Below are positions 21,470 through 61,649 of a DNA stretch of 64,000 bases, piece by piece; position 1 is the stretch's first letter; each line of letters opens with the position of its first letter. The notes beneath the pieces were generated by a model. The model searched no databases. It worked only from the letters and a program-made list of their open reading frames with translations, and had not been told where the DNA came from. The stretch lies in the NCBI GenBank assembly GCA_902499925.1, contig GCA_902499925.1_4130.1; one strand, 5' to 3'. The stretch comes from Escherichia coli. GTDB lineage: Bacteria > Pseudomonadota > Gammaproteobacteria > Enterobacterales > Enterobacteriaceae. The position numbers and the translations under genes were made by a program.

Positions 21470-22003
21470 TTATTTCCTCATGTATTTTATTACATCTTCA
21501 AATAGTTTAGTTTTCAGTGCATCATCATTACCAGGTAGAAAAGTACTGAAGCTATTAAAATCTTCATTCTTGGCAAACTCACGCATCTGTGTGGAACTGT
21601 AGCGACTTACATTTCGGTCAATTCCAGCTTGAACTGCCTTGATTGAACAAAAATTATATAACTTCCCATTGTACGTGTCAAGTGTTTTTTGGAATGGTTC
21701 AAGTCTGTCTGAACCACATATGAAAAGAACATCTAAGTACTTTCCATCCAGTTCTCTCATTATATCAAACAGATTATCTTCTGTATAGATATTTTCTTGT
21801 ACAGATGGGTAAAATCCTTCTGTATAGTACATTTTCAGTTCAGGAGGTAATGGGTTTTTGACGGCATCAGTACTGGTACTAAGGAATATTTTCAAATCAG
21901 CATTGTACTGTTCTTGTAGTGCTTGAGCTTTTTCAAACACTAAACCATGACCTCGATGTACAGGGTTAATTCTTCCGAATGTCACTACGCATGTTTCTTT
22001 CAT
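21470..22003 (-). CDS. cytidylyltransferase-superfamily nucleotidyltransferase (NMN adenylyltransferase-like)
   Basis: 177 aa; N-terminal FGRINPVHRGH ((H/T)xGH motif) and C-terminal SSTQMR (ISSTxxR-type motif). Confidence 0.7.
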   Translation of the reverse strand: MKETCVVTFGRINPVHRGHGLVFEKAQALQEQYNADLKIFLSTSTDAVKNPLPPELKMYYTEGFYPSVQENIYTEDNLFDIMRELDGKYLDVLFICGSDRLEPFQKTLDTYNGKLYNFCSIKAVQAGIDRNVSRYSSTQMREFAKNEDFNSFSTFLPGNDDALKTKLFEDVIKYMRK

Positions 22004-22524
22004 ATGTTCTTCATCACCTGACCAATAGATTTAAGATGGTTGATTTTAGCTGGAGTCAAATACTTATCCAGTACTATTAAACAACTAGGGAATGGAGCAC
22101 TGTCAGTCTTTTTATCTGGTTCTTCAGGGATACCGAACTTTAAGCGACCTTTTATAAAACAAATACAGTCGCATAACTTAGACGCATAGTCCTGGAACGC
22201 AATAGTATCAGTTCTTGATGGTACGAGAATCAGTACTGTAGCACCTTTGTTATATGCATCAACTGCCTTAGATAACCACGTTTTCAAATCACTGTACGGT
22301 GGGTTGAGCCACACGATATTGTTTCCCCAGTCCTGTTCAAGTGAATTGTCTTCTGGTGTAAAGAACTTATCACACAATGCAGTTTCTTTGACACAAGCTG
22401 CATCTAGTGTAAATTCCCAGAGTTCATCCAAATCTTCAAAGAAATCCTTTGGAGTAGTCCAGTTATCTTTTCCAGTACTGAAATGTACTGATTGTTTTTT
22501 CTTCGAAGCATCCTTCTTCGACAT
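22000..22524 (-). CDS. phage Dam-type DNA N6-adenine methyltransferase
   Basis: 174 aa; TPKDFF..LDAAC, catalytic NPPYS, LVPSRTDT, KGRLKF, APFPS, typical of the phage N6-adenine MTase family; ATGA overlap with downstream gene. Confidence 0.8.
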   Translation of the reverse strand: MSKKDASKKKQSVHFSTGKDNWTTPKDFFEDLDELWEFTLDAACVKETALCDKFFTPEDNSLEQDWGNNIVWLNPPYSDLKTWLSKAVDAYNKGATVLILVPSRTDTIAFQDYASKLCDCICFIKGRLKFGIPEEPDKKTDSAPFPSCLIVLDKYLTPAKINHLKSIGQVMKNI

Positions 22525-22540
22525 ACATAATTTCCTTTGA

Positions 22541-23086
22541 TTATAGACAGTTAAGTACTATGTCATCAAAAGTACTACTGTCAATGTTGTATTCATATAA
22601 AAATTTAAAATGTGATCCATAACGCATCATCAGATTAAACTCTTCTTCAGTATTAAATTTGTAATCATGAAGAGTTTCAAGGGTACATGTTAAACCTAAA
22701 AACTCAATAATTTCTGATGTTACATCATTTCCTGAATTGAAGTATTTAACCCAAACACATTTTCCTTGTGGGTTGAATTTTCTATATTCTCCTTCTAGTT
22801 CTCCATTGACGATATGTGCTTTCGCACTGATTAGATTATTACTATAACGCTCTTCGTAGTAGTTCCCATAACGAGCTTTAAGAATTGTAGGCTTCTTGGT
22901 TGGGAATAACTTAATGGAAGTTAATTCAAAACCGCACTGCAACTCTTTGATGTACGAAATACATCCCTTTTCTTTAATCACAACAAAACCAGTAAAATTC
23001 TCTTGGTCTTGGTTCTGATTGTCTGAATCAACAAATTCTAGTGTTTTATAAGTGACGCTTTTAGATTTTTTAATAAATGACATCAT
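22541..23086 (-). CDS. hypothetical protein with MORN/YwqK-like repeats
   Basis: Start moved to ATG 23086 (AGGA 5 nt upstream; the track start would fall at the promoter); NGELEGEYRKFNPQGKCVWVKYFNSGN resembles MORN-type repeats. Confidence 0.4.
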   Translation of the reverse strand: MMSFIKKSKSVTYKTLEFVDSDNQNQDQENFTGFVVIKEKGCISYIKELQCGFELTSIKLFPTKKPTILKARYGNYYEERYSNNLISAKAHIVNGELEGEYRKFNPQGKCVWVKYFNSGNDVTSEIIEFLGLTCTLETLHDYKFNTEEEFNLMMRYGSHFKFLYEYNIDSSTFDDIVLNCL

Positions 23087-23144
23087 TATTCCTATGGAAA
23101 CATCAATGACTGTACATGGCGTTGACTTCATCAACACCAGTCGA

Positions 23145-23173
23145 ATTATACACGCTTCGCATGTCTAATTCAA
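23145..23173 (-). promoter_or_regulatory. sigma70-like promoter (TTGAAT-17-TATAAT)
   Basis: -10 at 23145-23150, -35 at 23168-23173, upstream of gene 22541..23086. Confidence 0.6.
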
Positions 23174-23704
23174 CGAAAGTACTATGATTTGTTTTAATTA
23201 ATATTGACGGGGTTTGCTTGAGCATATTTCATCCCCCCGCAGGGGAAAGAACAAAAAAAGTTTGACGCTGGTGGCCTTCACATAGTTCATATCACGAATT
23301 CTCTTACGAGGCGAAAGCGGGTTGCTCTGTTTCTCTCTATCGCGGTTCTTGTAGCAACGGTCGTCGGTCTTAAACATCCCGACACATAATACAAATACCA
23401 TATGACCAGTACTTGTATTTGATTTCACGAATTTTGGACGCAACTATATTGTATAAATTACGACCGCAAATTTCTCATGAAATCTCCCTTAGATAATTGG
23501 TAAGGTGCGATCCTTATATGTCTATCGAGGAACTCTCTTTATCCTATTGGAGTTCTTTATACAGCCGCATTGCCGTGAGTGGTTCAAACTATGCCATCAT
23601 CTAACGGGTTTCATTTGCTGTTCGTACTGAAAGGACTACTCATCTACCCTCTACTTTTCGAGTGGATTAGGCTTTAATCATTTCCATATGGAACCTTTCA
23701 GGAT
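23174..23704 (-). ncRNA. candidate structured non-coding RNA or decayed gene (non-coding island)
   Basis: About 530 bp with no convincing ORF, GC about 40-45% versus about 30% in the flanks, bounded by terminator 23705-23735 and promoter 23145-23173; several local hairpins (TAAGG-n6-CCTTA at 23502-23517, GAACTC-n14-GAGTTC at 23530-23555, palindrome TTCCATATGGAA at 23682-23693, CCCC-n-GGGG around 23233-23245). Confidence 0.3.
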
Positions 23705-23735
23705 TAAAAAAGGCGACAACATATTCTGCTGTCAC
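23705..23735 (-). terminator. rho-independent terminator
   Basis: GGUGACA-GCAGAAUAUGU-UGUCGCC then UUUUUU, after 23767..24615. Confidence 0.7.
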
Positions 23736-23740
23736 CTTAC

Positions 23741-23768
23741 ATTATATCATAAACTTATGGTATGTCTC
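23741..23768 (-). promoter_or_regulatory. possible promoter (GAGACA-16-TGaTATAAT) abutting a terminator hairpin
   Basis: -10 at 23741-23746; -35 overlaps the stop codon of 23767..24615; the predicted start falls at the first bases of the 23712-23735 hairpin. Confidence 0.4.
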
Positions 23769-24615
23769 AGTTGTATTCTGTTTTTTCAGTGAAATTAGTT
23801 AAGATATCTGCACTTAAGCTTCTCATAACCTCAATCTTACTTGGCATGAATCTGTGCTTGTTTTTTACATACAACTCGTCATCTTCAATGAAAGATGTGA
23901 ACATGAATACCATATCTTCACGTGGGATTGAGAGAATATTACAGTTTTCATTTTCAGCAACAGGGGAATCATTGTAGTACTTAGAGAATGCAGTACTTTG
24001 ACGACCGATTATGATAGAATTACGGATTAGAAAATTACTACAGTACTGAAAATCTTTGTAGTACTTGTCAAGGATATATGGCATTATCGCTTCTTTCACT
24101 TCTTCATATCCATTGGTACTATCAATTTCAGTACAATAATCTTCTCGGTCTTTATTCCCTCGATGATTATCAAACTCGTACTCAAAGAATAAATTTTCAT
24201 TTAATGAATTATTTGAACCAACTGATCCACTATAGTATGATTTTCTATCATTCATTCGATCATCGGGGCATGATGCATACATAGAAATGTCATGTGTTGA
24301 CGTACCGATATAAATTTTCTTAGTAATGTGATTGTACGCGATGTAATCATAATCTTGTACTCCAGTGAGCATTAACTGGAACATCAATTCATCAGGAACA
24401 TCAATCAACGGGTACTCAAACTTCGAATATCTACTACGACAGAAATTCTTTTCAAATGCTCGATATGCGATGAAATCTTTTAGGTTTGTAATAGATTCAT
24501 GCTCATGTGTATTACTGGTGCGTACATTGACATTAGTAGACGAGCAATACCCTTCAGATTCTTCTGCGTAGTCATAATAACCCTTACTGTAGTCAACGAT
24601 TAGATAAAGTTTCAT
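23767..24615 (-). CDS. hypothetical protein
   Basis: 282-aa ORF; GGAG RBS; terminator downstream. Confidence 0.65.
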   Translation of the reverse strand: MKLYLIVDYSKGYYDYAEESEGYCSSTNVNVRTSNTHEHESITNLKDFIAYRAFEKNFCRSRYSKFEYPLIDVPDELMFQLMLTGVQDYDYIAYNHITKKIYIGTSTHDISMYASCPDDRMNDRKSYYSGSVGSNNSLNENLFFEYEFDNHRGNKDREDYCTEIDSTNGYEEVKEAIMPYILDKYYKDFQYCSNFLIRNSIIIGRQSTAFSKYYNDSPVAENENCNILSIPREDMVFMFTSFIEDDELYVKNKHRFMPSKIEVMRSLSADILTNFTEKTEYN

Positions 24616-24627
24616 ATATCTCCAGAC

Positions 24628-24657
24628 AAAAAAAAGACGAGATATTATATCCCGTCC
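24628..24657 (-). terminator. rho-independent terminator
   Basis: GACGGGA-UAUAAUA-UCUCGUC (one G-U) then UUUUUUUU, after 24667..24972. Confidence 0.7.
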
Positions 24658-24666
24658 TTTGGTTTA

Positions 24667-24972
24667 TTAGTGGCTTGCCCAGCAGTAAACAGGACGTAGA
24701 TTTTCCATTGGGTTTACTTCAGGCTTCAGTACTGTAACACGAACTTCATACGGAGTACCATCTGCATGATGGAACGTTTCGTAATGAATACTCTCAATGA
24801 AGGTTTCATATTCTTCTTGAGAACGTGAACGAACTGATGGGGAATATTTCTTTTTGGTATCTGATTTTAGTGTAACACTTACTAGTTCTGATTCTTCACC
24901 ATTTTCAAGATTATTGAAATCGAACTCTGGTACACCTTCAAACATATCAAATTTCATTCCGTTGTCTTCCAT
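24667..24972 (-). CDS. hypothetical protein
   Basis: 101-aa ORF followed by terminator 24628-24657. Confidence 0.6.
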   Translation of the reverse strand: MEDNGMKFDMFEGVPEFDFNNLENGEESELVSVTLKSDTKKKYSPSVRSRSQEEYETFIESIHYETFHHADGTPYEVRVTVLKPEVNPMENLRPVYCWASH

Positions 24973-25023
24973 TTTAAATTCCTTTTTATATAATGTTAGT
25001 TAGATAGTTTTTAATAAATCAGA

Positions 25024-25410
25024 TTAGATTACGTCATACGGTAGAGTACCGTGACGGAATTTATCAAGTTGTGCAAGAACTTCTTTACGTTCTACAATCT
25101 CTGGCACATCTTCTTGCAGTTGGTCACATACTTCAACGATGAAATCCCAATCGCTCTCACAACTCACACGTACTGCTTCAATTGTTTTCCAATCAGCACT
25201 AATTTCACCTTCAGGATTTACATACGAAGGCCATACCTTTCCATAGTCTTGTACTGATTTGTCGTTAAGAACACGAATAGCATTGAAAATCTGTCCAGTA
25301 CTGAAGTGTTTAGTATTCTTCATGTCTTCTAAGCAACATAGCTTAGGTTCACCCTGGACTTCAATCAGAAGTACACCACCAATCGCTTTTAGAACAGAAC
25401 TTGTATTCAT
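25024..25410 (-). CDS. hypothetical protein
   Basis: 128-aa ORF downstream of promoter 25444-25471, GGAG RBS. Confidence 0.65.
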   Translation of the reverse strand: MNTSSVLKAIGGVLLIEVQGEPKLCCLEDMKNTKHFSTGQIFNAIRVLNDKSVQDYGKVWPSYVNPEGEISADWKTIEAVRVSCESDWDFIVEVCDQLQEDVPEIVERKEVLAQLDKFRHGTLPYDVI

Positions 25411-25443
25411 CTATATCTCCATTTATCAAAAAAAGATGTGAAC

Positions 25444-25471
25444 ATTATATCACAAGGAATTGTCATGTCCA
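25444..25471 (-). promoter_or_regulatory. sigma70-like promoter (TGGACA-16-TGaTATAAT)
   Basis: Intergenic region upstream of 25024..25410. Confidence 0.5.
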
Positions 25472-25481
25472 CAATATTTTA

Positions 25482-25775
25482 TCAAATAGTCAAACTTTCG
25501 TGCCAGTTATTGAAATCGTTAATAGCCAGCATAAACATATTCTCATCATTAAATTCTAGAATGTGTTCATTGTATAAGTAGCTAATGTACTTATTACTAC
25601 AGTGTTTGCTATTCATAATTAGCATTTCAACTGCACGTTCATATGAACATGGGCTGAGATACAATTTTGTTCCATCAGGATGCTCAATCTCCACTGCACC
25701 AGGTGGAATAAAACGTTCACCAGTATAAGGGATATACGGCTCTGTTTTGAAAATAAGTTTGAATTTAGTATCCAT
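25482..25775 (-). CDS. hypothetical protein
   Basis: 97-aa ORF. Confidence 0.55.
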   Translation of the reverse strand: MDTKFKLIFKTEPYIPYTGERFIPPGAVEIEHPDGTKLYLSPCSYERAVEMLIMNSKHCSNKYISYLYNEHILEFNDENMFMLAINDFNNWHESLTI

Positions 25776-25791
25776 ACCAAATCCTCCATAA

Positions 25792-26649
25792 TTACATTGT
25801 TTCTTTTATGTTGCGTAACATAGTATTAACTATGTTCATCTTCCCGCCTAACTTGAAGTAATATTCCAATTTATTAATAATATTACTTTTTAATATCTCA
25901 AATATTTGATATTCATTTGTTTCGAAACTAAGTTCGAATTGGAAAGTATATAAATTGTTGAATAGATGTACCAACGATGCATCAGGTGATTCCATTGTAA
26001 ATGTGTAGTTGGCACGATAACCAGTACTAATCACTACTTCCGATGATTCACCTTTCATGGATATGTCAATATTATACATCATTGGGCGACCAGTTGCAAT
26101 ATCTTTCATTCGGAAGAATGCAGTACTACGATACACAACACCATCTTCGGTAACCTGTTCTTGTATAGTGATATTTGAAACTTCACTCTCTTTGAATTTG
26201 GATTCGAATGAATGAATACGATTTGATGTTTCATCATCCGTATACATAGTGCATGTATATTTTCCAAAATCATCTCTAGATGTATAAGATTTATCACTGG
26301 CGGTTTTATAAAACGAAACCCCATTGACGTGTTCTTCTTTGTACATCATAGTGTCATGTGATTTGTAGTATGAACAATTAGGTGTTGAAAGAGATTCAAA
26401 ATTGTTCACATCATGACAGTAAGAAATAGAAGAATCGCTATACAGTACTACATCACGAATTGCAACTTCTTTTGAAGTACCTTTTTTGACAGAAATTTGA
26501 AAGTCATTGCATGGGAAGATTCTATATCCATCGTATGTATCTGATGTACTGATACCAAATGGTGTTGGGGAATTTAGAAATTCGTTGATATGTTCAAGTA
26601 CTGAATACTTTTTGAAATTGCGAAAGTCAGTGCTATCTAACATATACAA
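25792..26649 (-). CDS. hypothetical protein
   Basis: 285-aa ORF. Confidence 0.65.
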   Translation of the reverse strand: MYMLDSTDFRNFKKYSVLEHINEFLNSPTPFGISTSDTYDGYRIFPCNDFQISVKKGTSKEVAIRDVVLYSDSSISYCHDVNNFESLSTPNCSYYKSHDTMMYKEEHVNGVSFYKTASDKSYTSRDDFGKYTCTMYTDDETSNRIHSFESKFKESEVSNITIQEQVTEDGVVYRSTAFFRMKDIATGRPMMYNIDISMKGESSEVVISTGYRANYTFTMESPDASLVHLFNNLYTFQFELSFETNEYQIFEILKSNIINKLEYYFKLGGKMNIVNTMLRNIKETM

Positions 26650-26661
26650 TCTCCATAAATT

Positions 26662-26695
26662 TGGACAAAAAATTAGTCGAGAATAAATCTCGACT
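26662..26695 (-). terminator. rho-independent terminator
   Basis: AGUCGAG-AUUUAUU-CUCGACU then AAUUUUUUG; overlaps the 3' end of small ORF 26673..26804. Confidence 0.65.
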
Positions 26696-26804
26696 TGTGT
26701 TTTACTTTACCATTCTTCATTGCTTTTTTACGGTCCACATGTGTTTGAGGTTTATTAAACTCATTCATATGCTTTTGTACAAAGTTGTTTACATTTTTAG
26801 CCAT
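26673..26804 (-). CDS. small basic protein (43 aa, below track cutoff)
   Basis: ATG 26804 with GGAG 6 nt upstream, MAKNVNNFVQKHMNEFNKPQTHVDRKKAMKNGKVKHKSRFILD; the stop lies inside the terminator hairpin. Confidence 0.5.
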   Translation of the reverse strand: MAKNVNNFVQKHMNEFNKPQTHVDRKKAMKNGKVKHKSRFILD

Positions 26805-26806
26805 AC

Positions 26807-27280
26807 TTACTCCAAATCGGGATCTTTAACTGTTAGGCTTTCAATATCACTTGCGTAAAGAACTACATTAGTTTGTGTCTCTGATACTTTAAAATCATGA
26901 TAACTATCTTTCACTTTAAAATTATCCAAAATAAACCCTTTACTACAACACATCATGATTTTATCATCTTTGATGGTGTATGTATTCTTTTTCTTACGTA
27001 CTTCAGATTGTGGGGTAATATTATCATTGTTACGAATAACACAATCAATGTACTCGTCATTTGTACTCATAGGCATACCCATGATAAACGAATTACTAGT
27101 ACTGATTGTTAGTATAAAAACATTAGTATTTGGATTGTGAAAGAAGTCGTGCATAGTTTTACTGCATAAAAACAAGCACTGAATTATGTCCTTTACATTG
27201 AACATTATATCATGAACTTTGAATGCGTCCAACTCTAAAATGTCATCTATCTTTCCATTCTCAACAGTTTTAATCTCCAT
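26807..27280 (-). CDS. hypothetical protein
   Basis: 157-aa ORF; no FQ motif. Confidence 0.6.
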   Translation of the reverse strand: MEIKTVENGKIDDILELDAFKVHDIMFNVKDIIQCLFLCSKTMHDFFHNPNTNVFILTISTSNSFIMGMPMSTNDEYIDCVIRNNDNITPQSEVRKKKNTYTIKDDKIMMCCSKGFILDNFKVKDSYHDFKVSETQTNVVLYASDIESLTVKDPDLE

Positions 27281-27322
27281 GATCTATCCTTGATCTTCAA
27301 AGGCACTCCATGTGCACATATA

Positions 27323-27823
27323 TTAGGTCACAGCTTTGTATTTCTCCATTGCTTCGGTGATATTCAATACTGCTTGCGGTACGTCACTTTTGTTGTATGC
27401 AGTGTTTAGTTTTTCCATGTTATTGAGAAGACTTAGAAACAATGGAAGTACTTCTGCATTGTCACTGAAGTTACAATCATTGACAGTACTCAATTGAAAT
27501 AACTCACCCGCATCAACATTGAGTGTGTTGTATTCTTTAACAATGTTTTCTTCAGTATTGAAGATGTAGAATACAGTCCCCATGTGGTGTAAGTATACAC
27601 CAGTTTCATTCTGAATATGACATGGGGTGATTACAATTGCTGTGTTATCAATATTATTTACTATTGTCAAACGCAGACTATGTAACCCAAAGATTACAGT
27701 ACAATCCTTTGTACTGTGTTGGATCTGGTCACTAGTAAAGGAAGACCCACTATGATTTTTAGAACCATTTAGTATTTCTTTGATAATTTTAAATGAATTC
27801 TTCATCGAATTAGTTAAAAGCAT
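27323..27823 (-). CDS. FQ-motif paralog (long form), function unknown
   Basis: 166 aa; DAGELFQLSTVND. Confidence 0.7.
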   Translation of the reverse strand: MLLTNSMKNSFKIIKEILNGSKNHSGSSFTSDQIQHSTKDCTVIFGLHSLRLTIVNNIDNTAIVITPCHIQNETGVYLHHMGTVFYIFNTEENIVKEYNTLNVDAGELFQLSTVNDCNFSDNAEVLPLFLSLLNNMEKLNTAYNKSDVPQAVLNITEAMEKYKAVT

Positions 27824-53396: not shown

Positions 53397-53786
53397 CTAA
53401 TCGTGCCATTTAATAGGATACTCCGTTCCATTTATTGTATAAGATATAATCCATCCGTAATGAATAGGACTATTCTTTTCTCCTTTAGGAATAAAATATA
53501 AAGATGTACTAGGATTATAACTGAATAAATCTTTATTGTCAAATGTAAAATGAGATAACGTTATCTTCCTTGAACTTGGACTAATAACATTCTTAACACC
53601 AAACACGGTATCTTGATATTTCTCTGAAAATTCAAACAATGCATCTGTAATTAAATCATTGAATTCTATACATAATGGTTTAAAAGAACCATCATTATCT
53701 TTGAATTCCTTATATAAAGAGCTTCTTGTATTCAAAAGAAATATTACTTTTTTAAGATCCTGAACTATTTCTGGATTCATATTCAT
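53397..53786 (-). CDS. hypothetical protein
   Basis: 129-aa ORF, no family motif. Confidence 0.55.
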   Translation of the reverse strand: MNMNPEIVQDLKKVIFLLNTRSSLYKEFKDNDGSFKPLCIEFNDLITDALFEFSEKYQDTVFGVKNVISPSSRKITLSHFTFDNKDLFSYNPSTSLYFIPKGEKNSPIHYGWIISYTINGTEYPIKWHD

Positions 53787-54003
53787 TTATCTCATCCTGT
53801 AACTTAAGCATCAAAATTTGCATATTAATTTTTTGTACAAGGTGATTGAGAAATTTCTGTACTGTATCTTCTTGTTCTTTTGACCCAAGATAAAATAACA
53901 TATTAAATTCCGATAACCTCAGAGCAAAATCGTCATCTCCCCCTTGTAAACAAAAATCCCTGTACTTTGATGCATACAAATAACGGTTTATTTTTTTGTA
54001 CAT
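53752..54003 (-). CDS. GTNYQ-family-like small paralog (divergent outlier)
   Basis: 83 aa; LFYLGSKEQEDTV. Confidence 0.55.
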   Translation of the reverse strand: MYKKINRYLYASKYRDFCLQGGDDDFALRLSEFNMLFYLGSKEQEDTVQKFLNHLVQKINMQILMLKLQDEINEYESRNSSGS

Positions 54004-54990: not shown

Positions 54991-55356
54991 CTAGTATTGC
55001 ACTGTTCTAATGAAAGTACCTGAACTCATGGATTTAAGCTTATGAACCTCTTCCTGTATACCCTTGAGCAACTCTAAAGGCATTGGTACATCATGTACTA
55101 AGCTGTACTGAAAGTATTCTTCTTCAGATAAAGTACTAACATCTGGGACGCCAATTTTAGTTAGATAATCTTGATGTGTTGACCAATAAATTATATCTTC
55201 AGTACAATTGTACTCCCCATATACTGAACAATATTGATGAATATCTTTCCTGTACCCTTGAGCAATAAAGAACTTATCTACGGCATTAATAGAACTCACT
55301 TCGATTGTTACAGTACTTGAGCTTGTTTTTCCTTTATTATGCATATTAATCCCCAA
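54991..55356 (-). CDS. FQ-motif paralog (short form)
   Basis: 121 aa; SEEEYFQYSLVH. Confidence 0.75.
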   Translation of the reverse strand: MGINMHNKGKTSSSTVTIEVSSINAVDKFFIAQGYRKDIHQYCSVYGEYNCTEDIIYWSTHQDYLTKIGVPDVSTLSEEEYFQYSLVHDVPMPLELLKGIQEEVHKLKSMSSGTFIRTVQY

Positions 55357-55532
55357 ATTAGATATCGAACACTATCAGCTTGATAGTTAGTTCCTACTGT
55401 GTGTTTTAATATTAACTCATCTTTCAGTACTGAACATTCTGCATTAGATATAGGAAGTGAATTAATTCTTTGAATTTCTGGTCGCAACATACCGCGAATC
55501 TTGCGATAATCTTCGTATGATAATCTTTTCAT
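55308..55532 (-). CDS. GTNYQ-family small paralog
   Basis: 74 aa; HTVGTNYQADSV. Confidence 0.65.
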   Translation of the reverse strand: MKRLSYEDYRKIRGMLRPEIQRINSLPISNAECSVLKDELILKHTVGTNYQADSVRYLIWGLICIIKEKQAQVL

Positions 55533-55535
55533 GGT

Positions 55536-55880
55536 TTAATACTCAATAATGTGTTCTTCATAATCACCATTAGGCTCCTGTTTAGCTTCTTTCATTAGTA
55601 CTATCATCTTATGTACTAATGGCATAGGAAACTCTAAATCCCATACTAATGATTCCTGAAAGTATTCCTCTGGTGATAAAGTACTTAAATCTTTAATATC
55701 AACGTGCTTGTATATTTTATTTTCGTAATTAACAAATGATATATATAAATCATTAATATAAGAATCATACGTAATTGTGAATGGCTTACCCTTGTAGTCC
55801 ATTACATCTCTACATAGACTACTTTTGATATATATATGTTCATAGGATTTATATACCTTGAGTTGTATATTAGTTTTCAT
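55536..55880 (-). CDS. FQ-motif paralog (short form)
   Basis: 114 aa; SPEEYFQESLVW. Confidence 0.75.
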   Translation of the reverse strand: MKTNIQLKVYKSYEHIYIKSSLCRDVMDYKGKPFTITYDSYINDLYISFVNYENKIYKHVDIKDLSTLSPEEYFQESLVWDLEFPMPLVHKMIVLMKEAKQEPNGDYEEHIIEY

Positions 55881-56112
55881 ATTTCTCTTTATTAGCTTGT
55901 TTGGTTTTATAGTGAATTAAATCTATTAATGTAATCAAGTACAACTTCAAAAAGTACTCTTGATGGTTCGTACCTAATGATACAAAGAACTTATGCTCAT
56001 AAATCAAAACCTGTTTCACTTCAAAGGGACACTTAATCCTCTGTATAGGTTTAAGTAAATGATAGTACTTATTAAATCTATGATACATTTCTAGTTCTGT
56101 CAGTACTTTCAT
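55870..56112 (-). CDS. GTNYQ-family small paralog
   Basis: Track start 56121 is TTG; ATG 56112 follows the upstream stop; VSLGTNHQEYFL. Confidence 0.65.
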   Translation of the reverse strand: MKVLTELEMYHRFNKYYHLLKPIQRIKCPFEVKQVLIYEHKFFVSLGTNHQEYFLKLYLITLIDLIHYKTKQANKEKYEN

Positions 56113-56113
56113 A

Positions 56114-56335
56114 TTAAACAATCACTCCATTAGCTGTAGCATCACGTAAAGCTCTCAAATACTTCTGTACTGCTTGCTCTTGCTTATTTGTACCTAAAAG
56201 TATATACATCCATAATTCACTGTAATGTACATCTTGTGTATAAGGGTTGTTGTAACTTTTTGATAATATAGCATCAAATTCAGATGCATGAACCCTTGTG
56301 AACTTAAGAATATCTTGTTGTGTTATGATTCTCAT
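56114..56335 (-). CDS. GTNYQ-family small paralog
   Basis: 73 aa; ILLGTNKQEQAV. Confidence 0.7.
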   Translation of the reverse strand: MRIITQQDILKFTRVHASEFDAILSKSYNNPYTQDVHYSELWMYILLGTNKQEQAVQKYLRALRDATANGVIV

Positions 56336-56547
56336 ATCTTTTCCTGTACTATCTGTATAAGAATCCCTATGTGTGAATTAACAGTTCTCTCTTGATGCTG
56401 TGTTCCTAAGAGTGTCAGTACTATCATCTCTGAACGCAAAAGATTTTTCTGAAGTTCACTTATATCAGTCCTCATATCAAGATTCAGAAATTCTTGACTA
56501 TTTTTTCTGAATAGTGCCAAGTACTCTTGATTTGATATTTCCTTCAT
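56332..56547 (-). CDS. GTNYQ-family small paralog
   Basis: 71 aa; TLLGTQHQERTV. Confidence 0.7.
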   Translation of the reverse strand: MKEISNQEYLALFRKNSQEFLNLDMRTDISELQKNLLRSEMIVLTLLGTQHQERTVNSHIGILIQIVQEKI

Positions 56548-56774
56548 AGTTTATCCCTGATGCCATTTAAAAGTGCTCTAATATGCTCCTGTACGAATTT
56601 GTACTGACTGTCTGTTCCTAGAGTGAGTAGCAATCTTAAATCTGAACTTTTGATGTGATATTCTAAATCATTATTTGATTCTTGCATCAGTTTCTTAAAG
56701 GATGAGAAGTTTGCAGCCATTAGTTCAATGTATTCTGCTGTTCCTAGTGGTTTGTGTATTGGCTGTTTGTGCAT
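56544..56774 (-). CDS. GTNYQ-family small paralog
   Basis: 76 aa; LTLGTDSQYKFV. Confidence 0.7.
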   Translation of the reverse strand: MHKQPIHKPLGTAEYIELMAANFSSFKKLMQESNNDLEYHIKSSDLRLLLTLGTDSQYKFVQEHIRALLNGIRDKL

Positions 56775-56986
56775 TTTAATTTTATTACCCTTTTGAGTGT
56801 ATTAATGTAATTATACACATTGGCTTCTTGATAGTTAGTTCCCAGTGTAGCTTGAACATAGATTTCATTTAACTTAATAATTTTATCAGTATCTGGTAGT
56901 TTTGATGTGTTAATGGCAAATAACTTCAAAAACAGTCCATTTAAGATTGTTAGGTATTCTTCGTCGGTAATGATTCGCATTTGCAT
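56744..56986 (-). CDS. GTNYQ-family small paralog
   Basis: 80 aa; ATLGTNYQEANV. Confidence 0.7.
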   Translation of the reverse strand: MQMRIITDEEYLTILNGLFLKLFAINTSKLPDTDKIIKLNEIYVQATLGTNYQEANVYNYINTLKRVIKLKCTNSQYTNH

Positions 56987-57192
56987 TGGATAAACCTTTT
57001 TAGTTCTTTGATGTAATCATTAATATTGCATTCTTGATAGTTAGTCCCTAGGGTAGCTTGAACATAGATTTCACTCATTAGAATATTTTTTTCTTCATCA
57101 GGTAAATCTGTGGTCTTTGCTATATACAATTTTAGAATTAAACTACTTAATAGTTCGTGGTATTCACTTGGTGAAAGGATTTTCATTTGCAT
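56950..57192 (-). CDS. GTNYQ-family small paralog
   Basis: 80 aa; ATLGTNYQECNI; close paralog of 56744..56986. Confidence 0.7.
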   Translation of the reverse strand: MQMKILSPSEYHELLSSLILKLYIAKTTDLPDEEKNILMSEIYVQATLGTNYQECNINDYIKELKRFIQCKCESLPTKNT

Positions 57193-57398
57193 GTTCTCAG
57201 TACAGATTCTTTAAGTTCATCGATGTAGTCCTCAACGAATTGCTCTTGGAAGTTAGTTCCAATATATAAAAGAACTCTTAAATCTGCTCTAAGTAACTCT
57301 TTTTCATCATCATCTATATCAGACAATGTTATGTTTAAGAATTTACTTGTATTAAAGATTAACAATTCTGTTTGTTCACTGTGGCTTAAAATTTTCAT
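57183..57398 (-). CDS. GTNYQ-family small paralog
   Basis: 71 aa; LYIGTNFQEQFV. Confidence 0.7.
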   Translation of the reverse strand: MKILSHSEQTELLIFNTSKFLNITLSDIDDDEKELLRADLRVLLYIGTNFQEQFVEDYIDELKESVLRTCK

Positions 57399-57606
57399 AA
57401 TCTCTTTTTGCTTTCCTCGACAGTAGGTACAAATACGATTCTTCGTATTGTGCTTGGAAGTTTGTGTTTAAGAGTCGAAACAACTTCTGTTCTTCTAGAA
57501 CGAGTTGCTTATCTTCATAACAACGGTAGCGTATCAACTTTTTGTATTCGATGTTGATTACATCCATTACTATAAGCCCATGTTCATCATCTGTCAAGTG
57601 CTTCAT
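57376..57606 (-). CDS. GTNYQ-family small paralog
   Basis: 76 aa; RLLNTNFQAQYE. Confidence 0.65.
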   Translation of the reverse strand: MKHLTDDEHGLIVMDVINIEYKKLIRYRCYEDKQLVLEEQKLFRLLNTNFQAQYEESYLYLLSRKAKRDYENFKPQ

Positions 57607-57845
57607 GCTTTTTTTCTTTTCCTGATGTGTTTAGTTAAAAGGTATATTAGTTTTCTGATGTATTCTTCCTGATAGTTTGTTCCTAATAGTGCAAGAAGTT
57701 TTGCTTCAACTAAAGCTAATTGACGTTCTTCAAATGTGTGTTCCAGTATGTACTTTGGGTTTGATTTTTTAGAAATTGCACTATTAGTTTTCATTACAAT
57801 CTTATGATATTCATTAACTGTTAGGATTTTTAAATTCTTGAGCAT
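57603..57845 (-). CDS. GTNYQ-family small paralog
   Basis: 80 aa; ALLGTNYQEEYI. Confidence 0.7.
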   Translation of the reverse strand: MLKNLKILTVNEYHKIVMKTNSAISKKSNPKYILEHTFEERQLALVEAKLLALLGTNYQEEYIRKLIYLLTKHIRKRKKA

Positions 57846-58071
57846 GTACCTTTTCCTTTATAGAGAATTTAAGATATCGAAGCATACTTTCAATGTAATA
57901 CTCTTGTCTGTCAGTTCCAAGAAAGTACAGGAGTTGAATGTATAAAACTTCTGCACTCCTTTCGGCATGTGACTTGTTTGTGTCGTTTGGAAGTTGATTT
58001 GTAAGTTTTCTGGATTTAATTAATCGTTCTTTTAACTCATCGTCTGTTAAGTATTTCATTTGCATTTGCAT
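57814..58071 (-). CDS. GTNYQ-family small paralog
   Basis: 85 aa; YFLGTDRQEYYI. Confidence 0.7.
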   Translation of the reverse strand: MQMQMKYLTDDELKERLIKSRKLTNQLPNDTNKSHAERSAEVLYIQLLYFLGTDRQEYYIESMLRYLKFSIKEKVHAQEFKNPNS

Positions 58072-58297
58072 TTACTTTTTCCTTAATAGTGATTTTAAGA
58101 TATCTAATCATACGTGCAACATATTCCTCTTGTCTATCAGTTCCCAGAAGATATGGTAGTGATTGGAATAATACTTCTGCACTCCTTTCTGCTGGGGTTT
58201 GGTTTAGGTCAATTGGACGTTTATTGGTATATCTCTTGGCACGAACTAATCTCTCGACGTATTCATTATAGGTTAAGTATATCATTTCATTTTGCAT
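58037..58297 (-). CDS. GTNYQ-family small paralog
   Basis: 86 aa; YLLGTDRQEEYV. Confidence 0.7.
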   Translation of the reverse strand: MQNEMIYLTYNEYVERLVRAKRYTNKRPIDLNQTPAERSAEVLFQSLPYLLGTDRQEEYVARMIRYLKITIKEKVNANANEILNRR

Positions 58298-58533
58298 TTA
58301 ATGTTTCTTACGTAAATTGTCTGGATTAAACAATCAATCCAAGTTTGAATATATTGGTTTTGATACTGTGTGCCTAAGAGACTCTGCATTTTAAACTCTG
58401 CTTCAAGTTCATATCTCTTTTCTATAGAAAAGCTCAAATGACCATATTCTTTATCGTATCTTCTCAGTGCTTCCCCAATTCTATCAAATCTTTCTGCTAA
58501 TCTGATGTTATTCACAATATTCATCGCATTCAT
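58282..58533 (-). CDS. GTNYQ-family small paralog
   Basis: 83 aa; SLLGTQYQNQYI. Confidence 0.7.
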   Translation of the reverse strand: MNAMNIVNNIRLAERFDRIGEALRRYDKEYGHLSFSIEKRYELEAEFKMQSLLGTQYQNQYIQTWIDCLIQTIYVRNIKCKMK

Positions 58534-58787
58534 CGATCAGTACACCTCAGTGGTTGGGTCATTTGATGAAAGTACAGCTTACCTCTGATTTCCAGTAGTA
58601 ACTCCGCGATTAAGCGATTTACTTCTGTATCTTGATAGTTTGTTCCTAAGAATACACCCATCTTTAACTCACGCATCATAATCATTTTCTTACTGTGTTG
58701 AATTTCTGGGTTGTGATAGATTGTATTACGTTTGTGCGTAATTTTTGTCATACGCTCGGTATATTCATCTTTACTTAAATTAATCAT
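58530..58787 (-). CDS. GTNYQ-family small paralog
   Basis: Track 58530..58808; ATG 58787 (MINLSKDEY) matches sibling N-termini; VFLGTNYQDTEV. Confidence 0.7.
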   Translation of the reverse strand: MINLSKDEYTERMTKITHKRNTIYHNPEIQHSKKMIMMRELKMGVFLGTNYQDTEVNRLIAELLLEIRGKLYFHQMTQPLRCTDR

Positions 58788-59019
58788 TTTTATTCTCCAA
58801 AGCATCACATTTATTTTCGATACAAATCATTAGTTCTCTAAGATAGTTTTTTATCTTACCTTCCTGATGGTTCGTCCCCAGGAAGTTGCATAACTCTGCT
58901 TCTATTATTTTGATTCTTCTGGTGTCAGGTTTCAATTTTTTGTTATTGAAGATTTGAATCCTTATATCCCTTGATGCATTTAAACGTTTTTGATATTCAT
59001 GGAAAGATAAATTAATCAT
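58780..59019 (-). CDS. GTNYQ-family small paralog
   Basis: 79 aa; MINLSFHEY; NFLGTNHQEGKI. Confidence 0.7.
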   Translation of the reverse strand: MINLSFHEYQKRLNASRDIRIQIFNNKKLKPDTRRIKIIEAELCNFLGTNHQEGKIKNYLRELMICIENKCDALENKND

Positions 59020-59234
59020 TTACTTTGTATCTCTCTCTTGAGGGCATCAATTAACAACAGTACAGCATTCTCTTGATAGTTTGTTCCTAAGACTGAAAGC
59101 ATCTTAATCTCATTTACTACAATCAACTTCTTTGAGCGTTCAATAATGTTACTATTATAAACGGCGTTACGTGCTGGATAAGTTTTTGCAAGACGAACAT
59201 AATATTCATCTTTACTTAAATTAATCATTTGCAT
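59016..59234 (-). CDS. GTNYQ-family small paralog
   Basis: 72 aa (alternative ATG 59228 gives MINLSKDEY); SVLGTNYQENAV. Confidence 0.7.
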   Translation of the reverse strand: MQMINLSKDEYYVRLAKTYPARNAVYNSNIIERSKKLIVVNEIKMLSVLGTNYQENAVLLLIDALKREIQSK

Positions 59235-59443
59235 TTACTTTGGATCTCCTTGACTAATGCATCAACCCACATGTCTATATACATTTGTTGATAGTTTGTC
59301 CCTATGAGTGCCCCTGCATAGAGTTCAGCTACCATTGCATGTTTTAGGTTGGCAGGGATGCTCTTATCAGATTGAATCTTTACTCTTCTGTTGGCACATG
59401 TTTTCAGAAGCTTAACATATTCGTAACCTATTAATTTTCTCAT
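59225..59443 (-). CDS. GTNYQ-family small paralog
   Basis: 72 aa; ALIGTNYQQMYI. Confidence 0.7.
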   Translation of the reverse strand: MRKLIGYEYVKLLKTCANRRVKIQSDKSIPANLKHAMVAELYAGALIGTNYQQMYIDMWVDALVKEIQSKCK

Positions 59444-59655
59444 TCTTTTGATATCACCTTGTTACGTAAGGCACTTAACAATACGTCAGTGTAGATGTTT
59501 TGATAGTTTGTTCCTACGAATACACCCAACTTCATTTCAGCTATTATAACACATTTGTCCTCTTGTGCAATAGACTTGTCTAAAGAAATACTAACAACTT
59601 TCCTTCTTATAGCTTGTAACCTCCAATGATACTGATACTCATTTAGGGTTATCAT
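59440..59655 (-). CDS. GTNYQ-family small paralog
   Basis: 71 aa; VFVGTNYQNIYT. Confidence 0.7.
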   Translation of the reverse strand: MITLNEYQYHWRLQAIRRKVVSISLDKSIAQEDKCVIIAEMKLGVFVGTNYQNIYTDVLLSALRNKVISKE

Positions 59656-59890
59656 TCTCTCGCCTCCATTTCTCGGTTCTAATGTGTTGACATTGTGCTT
59701 CGATGAACATATCTATTGATTTGGCAATTGCTTTTTTATCTGTGCCTGTCATCAGTACAAGCATCTCGGCCTCACAGTGAAGTAAACGCATGATATCATA
59801 GGGTAATATTCCAGATACCGTGTCATAGTGTTTCTGTGCCAGTGTCTGTAATAGTTTACAATACATTTTGTGATTTAGTCTGTGTCGCAT
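59639..59890 (-). CDS. GTNYQ-family small paralog (divergent core)
   Basis: 83 aa; LMTGTDKKAIAK at the core position. Confidence 0.55.
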   Translation of the reverse strand: MRHRLNHKMYCKLLQTLAQKHYDTVSGILPYDIMRLLHCEAEMLVLMTGTDKKAIAKSIDMFIEAQCQHIRTEKWRRENDNPK

Positions 59891-60147
59891 TGTTTATTCC
59901 ATTCTTTTTTGGCCTTGATGGTTTTATATTGGATTTGGTTTCTTAATGCTGATAAGTATCGTTGAATGAACAGATCTTGATAGTTTGTTCCAATGAATTT
60001 CATCAGATAAAGTTCACCGTTGATAACATCCACTTCAGGTGCACCATATAAGGCATTGTTTTTTCTAAGGGTATGGATTAAAGAGAATAGGGCAGTTTGA
60101 TACTCAACTCCTGATAAAGTCTTCATGTTTTGTGAGCCAATAATCAT
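59875..60147 (-). CDS. GTNYQ-family small paralog
   Basis: 90 aa (alternative ATG 60126 gives MKTLSGVEY); KFIGTNYQDLFI. Confidence 0.7.
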   Translation of the reverse strand: MIIGSQNMKTLSGVEYQTALFSLIHTLRKNNALYGAPEVDVINGELYLMKFIGTNYQDLFIQRYLSALRNQIQYKTIKAKKEWNKQCDTD

Positions 60148-60361
60148 CTAGTTTATCCTGTATAACATTCATTAATTGTTCGACATATTCTGTGCAAAAC
60201 TTATCTTGATATTGAGTCCCCATAAAGTACAACAACCATAGCTCATTAACTTTAGCTCGCATTTGGTTCCATGTAAGGCTGGGGTCATCGTAGACTATCC
60301 TTGCTATAGGGGTTAGTTTACGGACTATAGTTTCATATTCATCTAGTGTTAAGTGTTTCAT
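60104..60361 (-). CDS. GTNYQ-family small paralog
   Basis: 85 aa; YFMGTQYQDKFC. Confidence 0.7.
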   Translation of the reverse strand: MKHLTLDEYETIVRKLTPIARIVYDDPSLTWNQMRAKVNELWLLYFMGTQYQDKFCTEYVEQLMNVIQDKLDDYWLTKHEDFIRS

Positions 60362-60576
60362 TTACATTTGTCCCTTATTAGATCAGTGAGGGCAACTATG
60401 TGTGCAACAACATACTCTTCCTGAAAGTTCGTCCCCAGTACAGCCATCATGCGTATATCGGTGGTGTTTATCCTGTGTTCCCTTACACATAAACCTTCTG
60501 TGTGAGGAAGTGTAAAATATTTGTTTATTGCAGCAACGATAATTTTATTCTTCTCGGAGTTACTTAAATGTTTCAT
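60358..60576 (-). CDS. GTNYQ-family small paralog
   Basis: 72 aa; AVLGTNFQEEYV. Confidence 0.7.
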   Translation of the reverse strand: MKHLSNSEKNKIIVAAINKYFTLPHTEGLCVREHRINTTDIRMMAVLGTNFQEEYVVAHIVALTDLIRDKCK

Positions 60577-60785
60577 AGTTTGCTCTTAATGTATTTCTGG
60601 AGTGCAATTATATACTCATTCAAGAAATGCTCCTGATAGTCTGTGCCGAGGAATGCACCCAATAGTATATCATTTTCCAATACTAATGCTAAGTTTAAAT
60701 CATCAGTCTCTTCATATACTATGAGAATTTCAAGTTGTCTGGCAGCGACGCGTTCGGTATATAGATTTGAGTTAATGCTATTCAT
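60573..60785 (-). CDS. GTNYQ-family small paralog
   Basis: 70 aa; AFLGTDYQEHFL. Confidence 0.7.
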   Translation of the reverse strand: MNSINSNLYTERVAARQLEILIVYEETDDLNLALVLENDILLGAFLGTDYQEHFLNEYIIALQKYIKSKL

Positions 60786-60994
60786 AGTTTACTCTTAATG
60801 TAATTCTGGAGTGCAATTAAGTATTCCCCTACATAATACACCTGAAAGTCTGTATCCAAAAATGCACCCATAAGTAAATCTTTTTCTAATACCCTTGATA
60901 AGTTAAGGTCTGCATTTGAAAGGTATATAAGTAAGATTTCACCCTGTGCGGAATTGAAACGTTTCTTATATTCTTCTGGTGTTAAAAAAATCAT
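60782..60994 (-). CDS. GTNYQ-family small paralog
   Basis: 70 aa; AFLDTDFQVYYV; close paralog of 60573..60785. Confidence 0.7.
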   Translation of the reverse strand: MIFLTPEEYKKRFNSAQGEILLIYLSNADLNLSRVLEKDLLMGAFLDTDFQVYYVGEYLIALQNYIKSKL

Positions 60995-61200
60995 AGTTTC
61001 CTCTTAATATCTTCTATTAAAAATCGAATCCAATCGTCAACATACTCTTCCTGATGGTTTGTGTTCAGTACAGCCAACATGCGGATCTCTGCTCTTGCAA
61101 CTTCAATTGCAGTTTTAGGAAGGTCTTTTCTGATATCCAACATTAAGTCCATGTATCTCAAGATAAGACCGTATGATTGGGTTCGTGTTATAGTTTTCAT
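60991..61200 (-). CDS. GTNYQ-family small paralog
   Basis: 69 aa; AVLNTNHQEEYV. Confidence 0.7.
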   Translation of the reverse strand: MKTITRTQSYGLILRYMDLMLDIRKDLPKTAIEVARAEIRMLAVLNTNHQEEYVDDWIRFLIEDIKRKL

Positions 61201-61397
61201 TGTTTCCTCGTGGATAATATTTCATTTTTCAATGCATCCATATATTGAATCACCCATCTTCCCTGATAGCTTGTTCCCAATGTAATCAAAAGGTATAACT
61301 CAATTCGTTCTAAGTTTGTGTCTGTGTTATAAATCTTTACCATGTTTTTACGTAACAGTTCTTGATAATCTTCTTTATTTAAAATACGCATTTTCAT
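61197..61397 (-). CDS. GTNYQ-family small paralog
   Basis: 66 aa; ITLGTSYQGRWV. Confidence 0.65.
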   Translation of the reverse strand: MKMRILNKEDYQELLRKNMVKIYNTDTNLERIELYLLITLGTSYQGRWVIQYMDALKNEILSTRKQ

Positions 61398-61591
61398 AGT
61401 CTACCTTTTATGTCCCTTCGTAATTCTTGTAAGTATAGTTCGATATACTTTTCTTGATAGTTAGTTCCTATGAAAAGTTTCATAACCAATTCACGCTTAT
61501 ATGCAATACCACGGATATGTGACATATGTAGGATATATGCCATGTTGGATATGAGTGTGTGGTTGTGCTCTTCTTGAGTTAAAATACGCAT
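61394..61591 (-). CDS. GTNYQ-family small paralog (first gene of the array)
   Basis: Track 61394..61621; ATG 61591 (MRILTQEEH) has GGAG upstream and lies downstream of promoter 61622-61649; LFIGTNYQEKYI. Confidence 0.7.
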   Translation of the reverse strand: MRILTQEEHNHTLISNMAYILHMSHIRGIAYKRELVMKLFIGTNYQEKYIELYLQELRRDIKGRL

Positions 61592-61621
61592 AGGGACTCC
61601 ATTAAAAATAATATCAATCAT

Positions 61622-61649
61622 ATAATATACAATTCATATAAAAAGTCAA
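61622..61649 (-). promoter_or_regulatory. sigma70-like promoter (TTGACT-16-TATTAT) heading the GTNYQ array
   Basis: -35 at 61644-61649, -10 at 61622-61627; other -10 registers are possible in this AT-rich stretch. Confidence 0.45.

Follow-up and report, generated by a model that had tools for sequence, protein, structure and literature searches.

Short conserved segments are known to seed recombination in multigene families; the segments flanking the variable minicassettes of Neisseria pilE/pilS and the homology blocks of the Plasmodium var genes are examples. On a different scale, phage genomes are mosaic at short conserved sequences located at gene boundaries, and large DNA viruses exhibit the tandem expansions referred to as the "genomic accordion". 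Akashi-type translational-accuracy bias, in its turn, concerns the choice of codons at conserved residues. The present report describes an array of 27 tandem paralogous small genes of 66-91 amino acids (aa) on the minus strand at 55308..61621 of the 64,000-nucleotide (nt) stretch presented above (hereafter, the window), which is 86-96% identical across the region to PBECO4/121Q-like jumbo coliphages (genus Asteriusvirus). The proteins share the motif L-G-T-N-Y-Q-E, and the 17-nt block encoding its Gly-Thr-Asn-Tyr-Gln core is truly non-random at the third positions of Asn and Tyr and in a purine preference at Gly, while two other third positions drift freely.

The likeness to pilE/pilS and var is that diverged paralogs carry short nucleotide-conserved segments, that junctions are found there, and that the modules on their sides are reshuffled. 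The array differs in belonging to a lytic jumbo phage, in having 1:1 orthologs, and in lacking an expressed locus that receives sequence from silent donors; neither a dedicated recombination machinery nor a cis element (G-quadruplex, nuclease site) was identified in it, and the exchange observed is, as judged from sequence comparison, evolutionary. As in mosaicism and the accordion, the copy number ranges in close relatives (19-31 per fetched locus), and 18 of 30 detected switches of similarity fall at gene boundaries, where a stop/start overlap recurs; what differs is the intragenic junction zone lying on a protein motif, with half-genes exchanged besides whole genes. With Akashi-type bias the array shares a constrained Asn using nearly one codon, a C-ending one; however, GGA and TAT are not preferred codons, the codon differs by family, and conserved Asn elsewhere is AAC in 36% of cases. 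In this multigene family the conserved block is at the same time a junction for recombination, and one synonymous constraint in it is well supported.

Codon choice in the block

The array consists of one gene at 55308-55532, a gene of another family at 55536-55880, and then 26 contiguous genes from 55870 to 61621; neighbouring array genes overlap by 4-44 nt. The genes and their blocks are listed below; in the text, a gene is denoted by g and the start coordinate of its open reading frame (ORF).

55308..55532, minus strand: family gene, block GGA ACT AAC TAT CAA at 55380-55394
55870..56112, minus strand: family gene, block GGT ACG AAC CAT CAA at 55960-55974
56114..56335, minus strand: family gene, block GGT ACA AAT AAG CAA at 56180-56194; the only AAT of the window
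56332..56547, minus strand: family gene, block GGA ACA CAG CAT CAA at 56392-56406
56544..56774, minus strand: family gene, block GGA ACA GAC AGT CAG at 56604-56618
56744..56986, minus strand: family gene, block GGA ACT AAC TAT CAA at 56828-56842; recent duplicate of g56950
56950..57192, minus strand: family gene, block GGG ACT AAC TAT CAA at 57034-57048
57183..57398, minus strand: family gene, block GGA ACT AAC TTC CAA at 57246-57260
57376..57606, minus strand: family gene, block AAC ACA AAC TTC CAA at 57454-57468
57603..57845, minus strand: family gene, block GGA ACA AAC TAT CAG at 57669-57683
57814..58071, minus strand: family gene, block GGA ACT GAC AGA CAA at 57904-57918
58037..58297, minus strand: family gene, block GGA ACT GAT AGA CAA at 58130-58144
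58282..58533, minus strand: family gene, block GGC ACA CAG TAT CAA at 58360-58374
58530..58805, minus strand: family gene, block GGA ACA AAC TAT CAA at 58632-58646
58780..59019, minus strand: family gene, block GGG ACG AAC CAT CAG at 58864-58878
59016..59234, minus strand: family gene (modelled with AlphaFold2), block GGA ACA AAC TAT CAA at 59073-59087
59225..59443, minus strand: family gene, block GGG ACA AAC TAT CAA at 59288-59302
59440..59655, minus strand: family gene, block GGA ACA AAC TAT CAA at 59500-59514
59639..59890, minus strand: divergent family gene, block GGC ACA GAT AAA AAA at 59732-59746
59875..60147, minus strand: family gene, block GGA ACA AAC TAT CAA at 59977-59991
60104..60361, minus strand: family gene, block GGG ACT CAA TAT CAA at 60206-60220
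60358..60576, minus strand: family gene, block GGG ACG AAC TTT CAG at 60421-60435
60573..60785, minus strand: family gene, block GGC ACA GAC TAT CAG at 60633-60647
60782..60994, minus strand: family gene, block GAT ACA GAC TTT CAG at 60842-60856
60991..61200, minus strand: family gene, block AAC ACA AAC CAT CAG at 61051-61065
61197..61397, minus strand: family gene, block GGA ACA AGC TAT CAG at 61263-61277
61394..61621, minus strand: first array gene, block GGA ACT AAC TAT CAA at 61454-61468

If up to 3 mismatches are allowed, the 16-mer CTTGATAGTTWGTTCC is matched 18 times in the window versus 1.25 expected, and none of 100 shuffles reaches 18; all but one of the matches (17/18) are on the plus strand between 55379 and 61468. 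The initial annotation placed the block at 12 approximate positions, each of which proved to be a real match within about 30 nt (55379, 56827, 57033, 57668, 58631, 59072, 59287, 59499, 59976, 60632, 61262 and 61453); additional degenerate copies are found at 55959, 56391, 57245 and 60205. The spacing of 210-260 bp noted there is simply the gene length of tandem paralogs.

Most of the block identity (12/17 nt) is ordinary amino-acid constraint on the Gly-Thr-Asn-Tyr-Gln loop, these nucleotides being first or second codon positions set by the motif; Thr is the sole invariant residue of the family. As the background for codon choice, about 120 further ORFs from the minus strand of the window were used. 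Asn is encoded by AAC in 16 genes and by AAT in one (background AAC 0.26, P = 6e-9; P = 4e-6 relative to the AAC share of 0.39 that the family itself has outside the motif). Tyr is TAT in 14 genes and TAC in none (background TAT 0.57, P about 4e-4; 9e-4 against the family's own usage). For Gly we find GGA 14, GGG 5, GGC 3 and GGT 2 versus a background of GGT 0.57 and GGA 0.24 (P = 3e-4), and the excess of GGR (R is a purine) is also significant against the family's usage outside the motif (P = 1e-3). Thr (ACA 16, ACT 8 and ACG 3 in the 27 genes; background ACA 0.43) and Gln (CAA 18, CAG 8; background CAA 0.60) show no difference. Synonymous uniformity is found at two sites of the central 8 nt (AAC TAT CA), accompanied by a GGR preference for Gly. 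The original statement that the block barely uses synonymous alternatives stands for Asn, Tyr and Gly; at Thr and Gln the synonymous diversity equals that of the background.

Essentially the same is obtained when each of 49 clusters (at least 50% aa identity; 13 phage arrays) is given one vote. Asn is then AAC in 22 clusters and AAT in 2 (P = 2e-11; 1e-7 when the family's own usage is the reference), 33/45 clusters have GGR for Gly (P = 2e-4), Tyr is TAT in 20 and TAC in 4 (P = 0.007-0.016), and Thr and Gln are at the background. Where Asp occupies the Asn position, GAT is used in 7/8 clusters, which is background-like. At the same time, AAT-TAT occurs and persists in one orthogroup, and in the arrays of phages Turkey5 and JNE01, 3-4 of the 9-10 Tyr codons are TAC; therefore, the frozen codons are preferred, not obligatory. 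Ten of the 27 array copies have no Asn, many of these also have no Tyr, and yet they are kept.

Several trivial causes were considered and rejected. Codon-pair context is ruled out, since AAC-TAT is the rarest spelling of the background Asn-Tyr dipeptides (6/50). Avoidance of palindromes or restriction sites (GTAC, AATT), as well as of off-frame stop codons and -10-like boxes, is not a cause either, since the background ORFs employ the alternatives without restriction. A scan of viral contigs with the semi-degenerate pattern GGAACAAAYTAYCAAGA serves only as a null: its 43 matches are single chance ones, none encodes a family member, and the four synonymous variants are about equally frequent among them (13/12/11/7).

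Considering that the paralogs are kin by descent, it is natural to ask whether the codons are those of a founder gene, the statistics being inflated by the non-independence of paralogs, with no special force involved. Sub-clades do share states (CAG, for example, in five consecutive genes from 60358 to 61397), and TAT is mutationally favoured in an AT-rich genome. However, the synonymous sites outside the block are saturated. The observation that flanking codons diverge freely is borne out: the median pairwise identity of the paralogs is 24% aa, and paralogs sharing an amino acid outside the block share its codon at a rate of 0.435 versus 0.415 expected at equilibrium (0.388 versus 0.413 within the well-aligned +/-12 codons). 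Background-like codon mixtures are also observed in other conserved columns (Thr 27/27, Gln 26/27, Leu 26/27, Ile 22, Glu 20, Tyr 18), and Thr and Gln, 3 nt either side of the core, are at equilibrium. With the other synonymous sites at equilibrium, leftover ancestry does not explain the pattern.

The rates between orthologs were estimated in 9 and then 13 genomes, with changes polarised by the majority codon. Mutation works against AAC: outside the block, 8/29 to 9/24 orthogroups vary in AAC columns, compared with 2/26 to 4/35 in AAT columns. Inheritance alone therefore cannot hold AAC in 22/24 clusters. In the 13 genomes, the third position of the block Asn varies in 2/17 orthogroups versus 8/29 elsewhere and that of the block Tyr in 1/14 versus 9/54; this 2-3 fold reduction is not significant in either case, which is a point in favour of mere history. 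On the other hand, the codon P value survives Bonferroni correction for about 30 columns, and columns as conserved as those of the block have reached the background. In view of the above, we consider an explanation by history rather improbable.

Exchange between copies in and beside the block

Orthologous arrays were taken from 12 phages: PBECO4, 121Q, UE-S1, Turkey5, ph0011, A4, JNE01, Salmonella SD-15_S21, EC.P1, SP27, G17 and TH47. Genes were split at the block and their halves matched to the window genes; the two halves agreed for 125 genes and marked 15 others as candidate hybrids. The first array gene is a hybrid, N(g61394)+C(g60991), in PBECO4, 121Q, UE-S1, ph0011, G17, SP27, TH47 and SD-15, while the window and A4 have the other arrangement; the informative sites are g61394-like through GGA ACT AAC TAT and g60991-like from the G of CAG on, i.e., the switch is in the block itself. 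Phage A4 carries a single N(g56950)+C(g56744) gene in place of the two adjacent paralogs of the window, as would be expected of unequal crossing-over. The orthologs of g57814 in ph0011 and UE-S1 are mosaics with g58037.

An unbiased change-point scan of 339 block-anchored 225-nt units yielded 126 significant pairs, which reduce to 30 distinct events, including the 18 at gene boundaries mentioned above. Eleven of the 12 intragenic events lie close to the block, from -30 to +44 nt relative to its start (P = 0.009). About four are in the block or at its edge (k = -7, +3/+10, +18 and +18), with the switch at +18, the 3' edge, in the orthogroups of g60573 and g56744; about seven more switch elsewhere within -30..+44 nt, and in the orthologs of g59225 similarity switches 7-26 nt upstream of the block.

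The gene boundaries have a shared patch of their own, which is the second one in the array: the stop/start overlap AAATGCAAATGA (..K-C-K-stop over M-Q-M..) recurs at array gene junctions, with 10 matches at no more than 1 mismatch in the window versus 1.8 expected. Its listed occurrences are as follows.

57183-57194, minus strand: AAATGCAAATGA stop/start overlap
58056-58073, minus strand: AAATGCAAATGA stop/start overlap
59225-59236, minus strand: AAATGCAAATGA stop/start overlap
60358-60369, minus strand: AAATGCAAATGA stop/start overlap

It is tempting to connect these junctions with the frozen codons, and we tentatively lean towards doing so, with a confidence that stays below an even chance; of the readings considered, this one covers the largest share of the facts, among them the lack of any RNA or DNA signal in the tests described below. 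The motif, being the only stretch common to all paralogs, would provide the micro-homology where copies recombine, and crossovers and very short conversions at the block would swap N-terminal and C-terminal halves. A copy with a matching core would join in the exchange and give rise to new genes; one whose core had mutated would leave it or be overwritten. The result would be a narrow, array-specific concerted evolution freezing arbitrary codons and keeping the 8-nt core uniform. We infer that AAC and TAT are held by exchange rather than by direct nucleotide selection. AAC and GGA are minor codons, and the two other paralogous families of the window (F2 and F3, below) freeze other codons; thus, the choice is arbitrary and family-specific, as a copying process predicts. 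When Asp replaces Asn, the core is broken and the third base returns to the background (the GAT clusters above), which we count in favour of exchange. The third positions of the block Gly, Thr and Gln, which are polymorphic among paralogs, vary in 42/94 orthogroup columns versus 33/120 elsewhere (P = 0.01), while those of Asn and Tyr, monomorphic among paralogs, change in 3/31 (P = 4e-4 against 42/94); fast turnover of the former combined with rare change of the latter fits import from other copies.

A number of points weigh against this proposal. The ortholog rates just given are equally expected under direct selection on the Asn and Tyr third positions. The block alone (-6..+20) is not significantly enriched for junctions (4/12 versus 20% expected, P = 0.2), and with 18/30 switches at gene boundaries block-dependent births are a minority. 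The hybrids switching in or beside the block give direct, though limited, support to the suggestion that recombination is seeded there. Gene conversion between paralogs had also been proposed as something to look for, and no long tracts were found between the window paralogs. The longest-match test was performed in register, since the physical overlaps of adjacent genes confound its unregistered version; the best in-register identities are the block itself, 15-22 nt, with the exception of three recently duplicated adjacent pairs, and this particular result agrees with exchange at the block. Two candidate tracts cross the block, one of 46 nt in g60991/g60358 (85% identity, 10/12 same codons) and one of 33 nt in g59440/g58530 (94% identity, 9/10 same codons), both marginal after 351 pair tests.

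The mechanism itself presents further difficulties. The Asn and Tyr third positions are fixed with Thr and Gln at the background only 3 nt away, whereas a conversion tract of ordinary length would make all four alike; the model therefore requires exchange points within 8 nt or selection among gene lineages. Unbiased conversion alone does not resist the C-to-T pressure, and under the exchange model AAC would in part be an accident that became frozen, its prior being about 0.26. Finally, the family has members outside the array, which are listed here.

40828-41019, minus strand: family member outside the array, block GGT ACA CAG TAT CAG, motif YLGTQYQEQ
40997-41224, minus strand: family member outside the array, block GGC TCT AAC AAA CAG, motif FVGSNKQDV
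53752..54003, minus strand: distant family member outside the array, motif YLGSKEQED

In the two members at 40828-41224, the Asn and the Tyr that are present are again AAC and TAT (n = 1 each), away from the array.

Two null results concern the extent of exchange. Whole-gene concerted evolution is absent, the orthologs being clearly 1:1 with ~70-98% nucleotide identity in matched halves; and the correlation of N-half with C-half similarity is uninformative, as all segment pairs correlate at about 0.

Two unusual ORFs were met in the same arrays. In SD-15_S21 (locus L008, 2510-2824), an annotated ORF of 104 aa replaces g56950, g56744 and g56544, its N-part being 95% identical to g56744 and its C-part 98% identical to g56544. 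Phage A4 (locus L006, 3194-4012) has an extra ORF of 819 nt just upstream of the array.

Possible selection on the codons or on a nucleic-acid site

If exchange holds AAC, the array is a small natural case in which recombination within a gene family both uses micro-homology and preserves it; if it does not, the skew points to an unrecognised constraint at the level of codons or nucleic acid. In either case, the Asn AAC is a clean and statistically robust synonymous site held against mutation bias. Two constraints of the second kind can be proposed, and for both the other paralogous families of the window are informative. F2 and F3, two neighbouring families unrelated to that of the array, share the motif 'EE.[YF]FQ.S'.

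30752-55880: F2 family, g30752, g31315, g36687, g37084, g38998, g39326, g44922, g45630, g45986, g46493, g51871, g54032, g54353, g54991, g55536
F3 family, nine genes: g36205, g37439, g40284, g41723, g42135, g42919, g43340, g43831, g44268

Non-background codons are observed in their motif cores as well: Gln CAG 12/15 and Leu TTA 10/11 in F2, Tyr TAC 8/8 and Ser AGT 7/8 in F3.

The first proposal is that codons are selected directly for decoding at critical residues of the loop: the Asn preceding helix 4 of the predicted structure must be AAC, the Gly and Tyr codons are tuned to local elongation kinetics, and recombination in the block is a by-product of its identity. AAU is more error-prone than AAC in E. 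coli and may be more readily misread as Lys, and the C is tied to Asn, as Asp at the same position returns to GAT. The members outside the array, which use AAC and TAT too, agree with this proposal, and so does the structure model, in which the motif forms a tight loop that includes a beta-bridge. In 11 flanking non-family genes AAC is also somewhat commoner at conserved Asn (36%) than at variable sites (21%; odds ratio 2.1, not significant), but a general accuracy effect of 36% is far below the 92% in the block. The Tyr codon is TAT (14/14) in the GTNYQ family and TAC (8/8) in F3, which argues against a general optimal-codon or accuracy effect. Furthermore, neither GGA nor TAT is preferred by the phage, nor are they known to be preferred by E. 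coli. AAT-TAT persists in its orthogroup, and TAC is tolerated in Turkey5 and JNE01. We regard selection for decoding as unlikely.

The second proposal is a sequence-specific cis-acting site in the DNA or RNA, made up of AACTATCA or the entire block and recognised by a nuclease, nickase, recombinase, RNase or regulator of phage or host origin, whose binding or cleavage would drive the exchange or regulate the array. In its favour, two central synonymous sites are constrained against mutation bias, at least one crossover lies inside the 8-mer, and the variable third positions of Thr and Gln could be degenerate positions of a recognition site. A function of this kind (a protein-binding or RNA processing site) had been suggested initially, and the following sequence analyses gave it no support. 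Outside the family, the invariant 8-mer AACTATCA shows no enrichment (8 occurrences versus about 5 expected, 7/8 on the opposite strand). RNAalifold predicted 0 base pairs for 27 block-centred segments of 105 nt, and Rfam gave no match at E <= 1. Promoter-like sites are not enriched (30 versus 33.7 expected), the plus-strand TTGATA, taken as a -35 box, has no paired -10 hexamer at 16-18 nt, and no promoter-like site is recurrently anchored on the block. It also speaks against a cis site that the copies without Asn or Tyr persist, that the Tyr third position is polymorphic in the Turkey5 and JNE01 arrays, and that F2 and F3 freeze codons of their own, which would require a separate site for each family. 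The probability of a cis site is, in our opinion, quite low.

A bolder version, which we consider highly improbable, is that AACTATCA is a cis site for a phage nuclease or strand-exchange function that deliberately shuffles the halves of a 27-gene host-takeover or anti-defence array. If it were true, the phenomenon would be a programmed diversification of cassettes in a lytic jumbo phage, with the Asn and Tyr sites selected for the sake of the shuffling site. We know of no link of the array to a specific host defence or selective pressure.

The proteins and the phage

The family is confidently predicted to consist of four-helix proteins of ~75 aa, four-helix bundles. The AlphaFold2 model of g59016, built from the 27-sequence alignment, has four helices with a predicted local distance difference test score (pLDDT) of 97.4; in the model, G50-T51-N52-Y53 form the loop joining helices 3 and 4, T51 makes a beta-bridge with residue 4 in an N-terminal strand, and Q54 begins helix 4. 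The L-G-x-x-x-Q pattern suggested a helix-turn-helix DNA-binding domain; similarity of the fold to such domains was not found and the candidate was dropped. Fold searches were uninformative on function, and the codon finding alone does not reveal it either.

Pfam has no family for the array proteins. Four of them match PHROG 4148 (no function on record) over the full length (E = 1.2e-22 to 9.7e-12, profile positions 1-71 of 74), and an exhaustive profile search of 1.8 billion proteins yielded no more than 86 representatives (50% identity). Orthologs of the array are present in 36 Asteriusvirus records. Word-indexed and tblastn searches found apparently only Asteriusvirus-like phages and no clear relatives beyond, the word-indexed matches being apparently confined to Asteriusvirus-like contigs of about 350 kb from E. 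coli; therefore, there is no independent distant lineage to sample. No description of the array was found in the literature.

Tiny fast-evolving gene arrays are typical of the presumed-early regions of jumbo phages and are almost entirely uncharacterised; for this one, we obtain a confident four-helix fold, half-gene exchange at the motif and whole-gene exchange at the stop/start overlaps. Papers on related phages presume that stretches of short hypothetical genes close to the terminal repeat are early and serve host takeover (PMC5259590). We presume early expression for the array region of short genes as well.

Almost all genes of the window (1-64000) are on the minus strand, with 148 ORFs of 60 aa or more occupying 93% of its length; the GC content is 28-42%, and no tRNA genes were found in the window. 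The A-richness of the coding strand peaks over the array, where the plus-strand AT skew is about -0.2. A putative promoter lies directly upstream of the first array gene, after a gap of ~220 nt following the preceding gene.

61622..61649, minus strand: sigma-70-like promoter candidate TTGACT-16-TATTAT, 10/12, a consensus match only

By its sequence and position, the sigma-70-like site, running from 61649 to 61622, is a plausible promoter of the array.

In phage vB_Ec-M-J (OQ718158), the region matched by the orthologous array (21514-27688) is annotated as overlapping 'Direct Terminal Repeats', and several records carry the array at two places; this suggests that the array is in or beside the terminal redundancy in some isolates.

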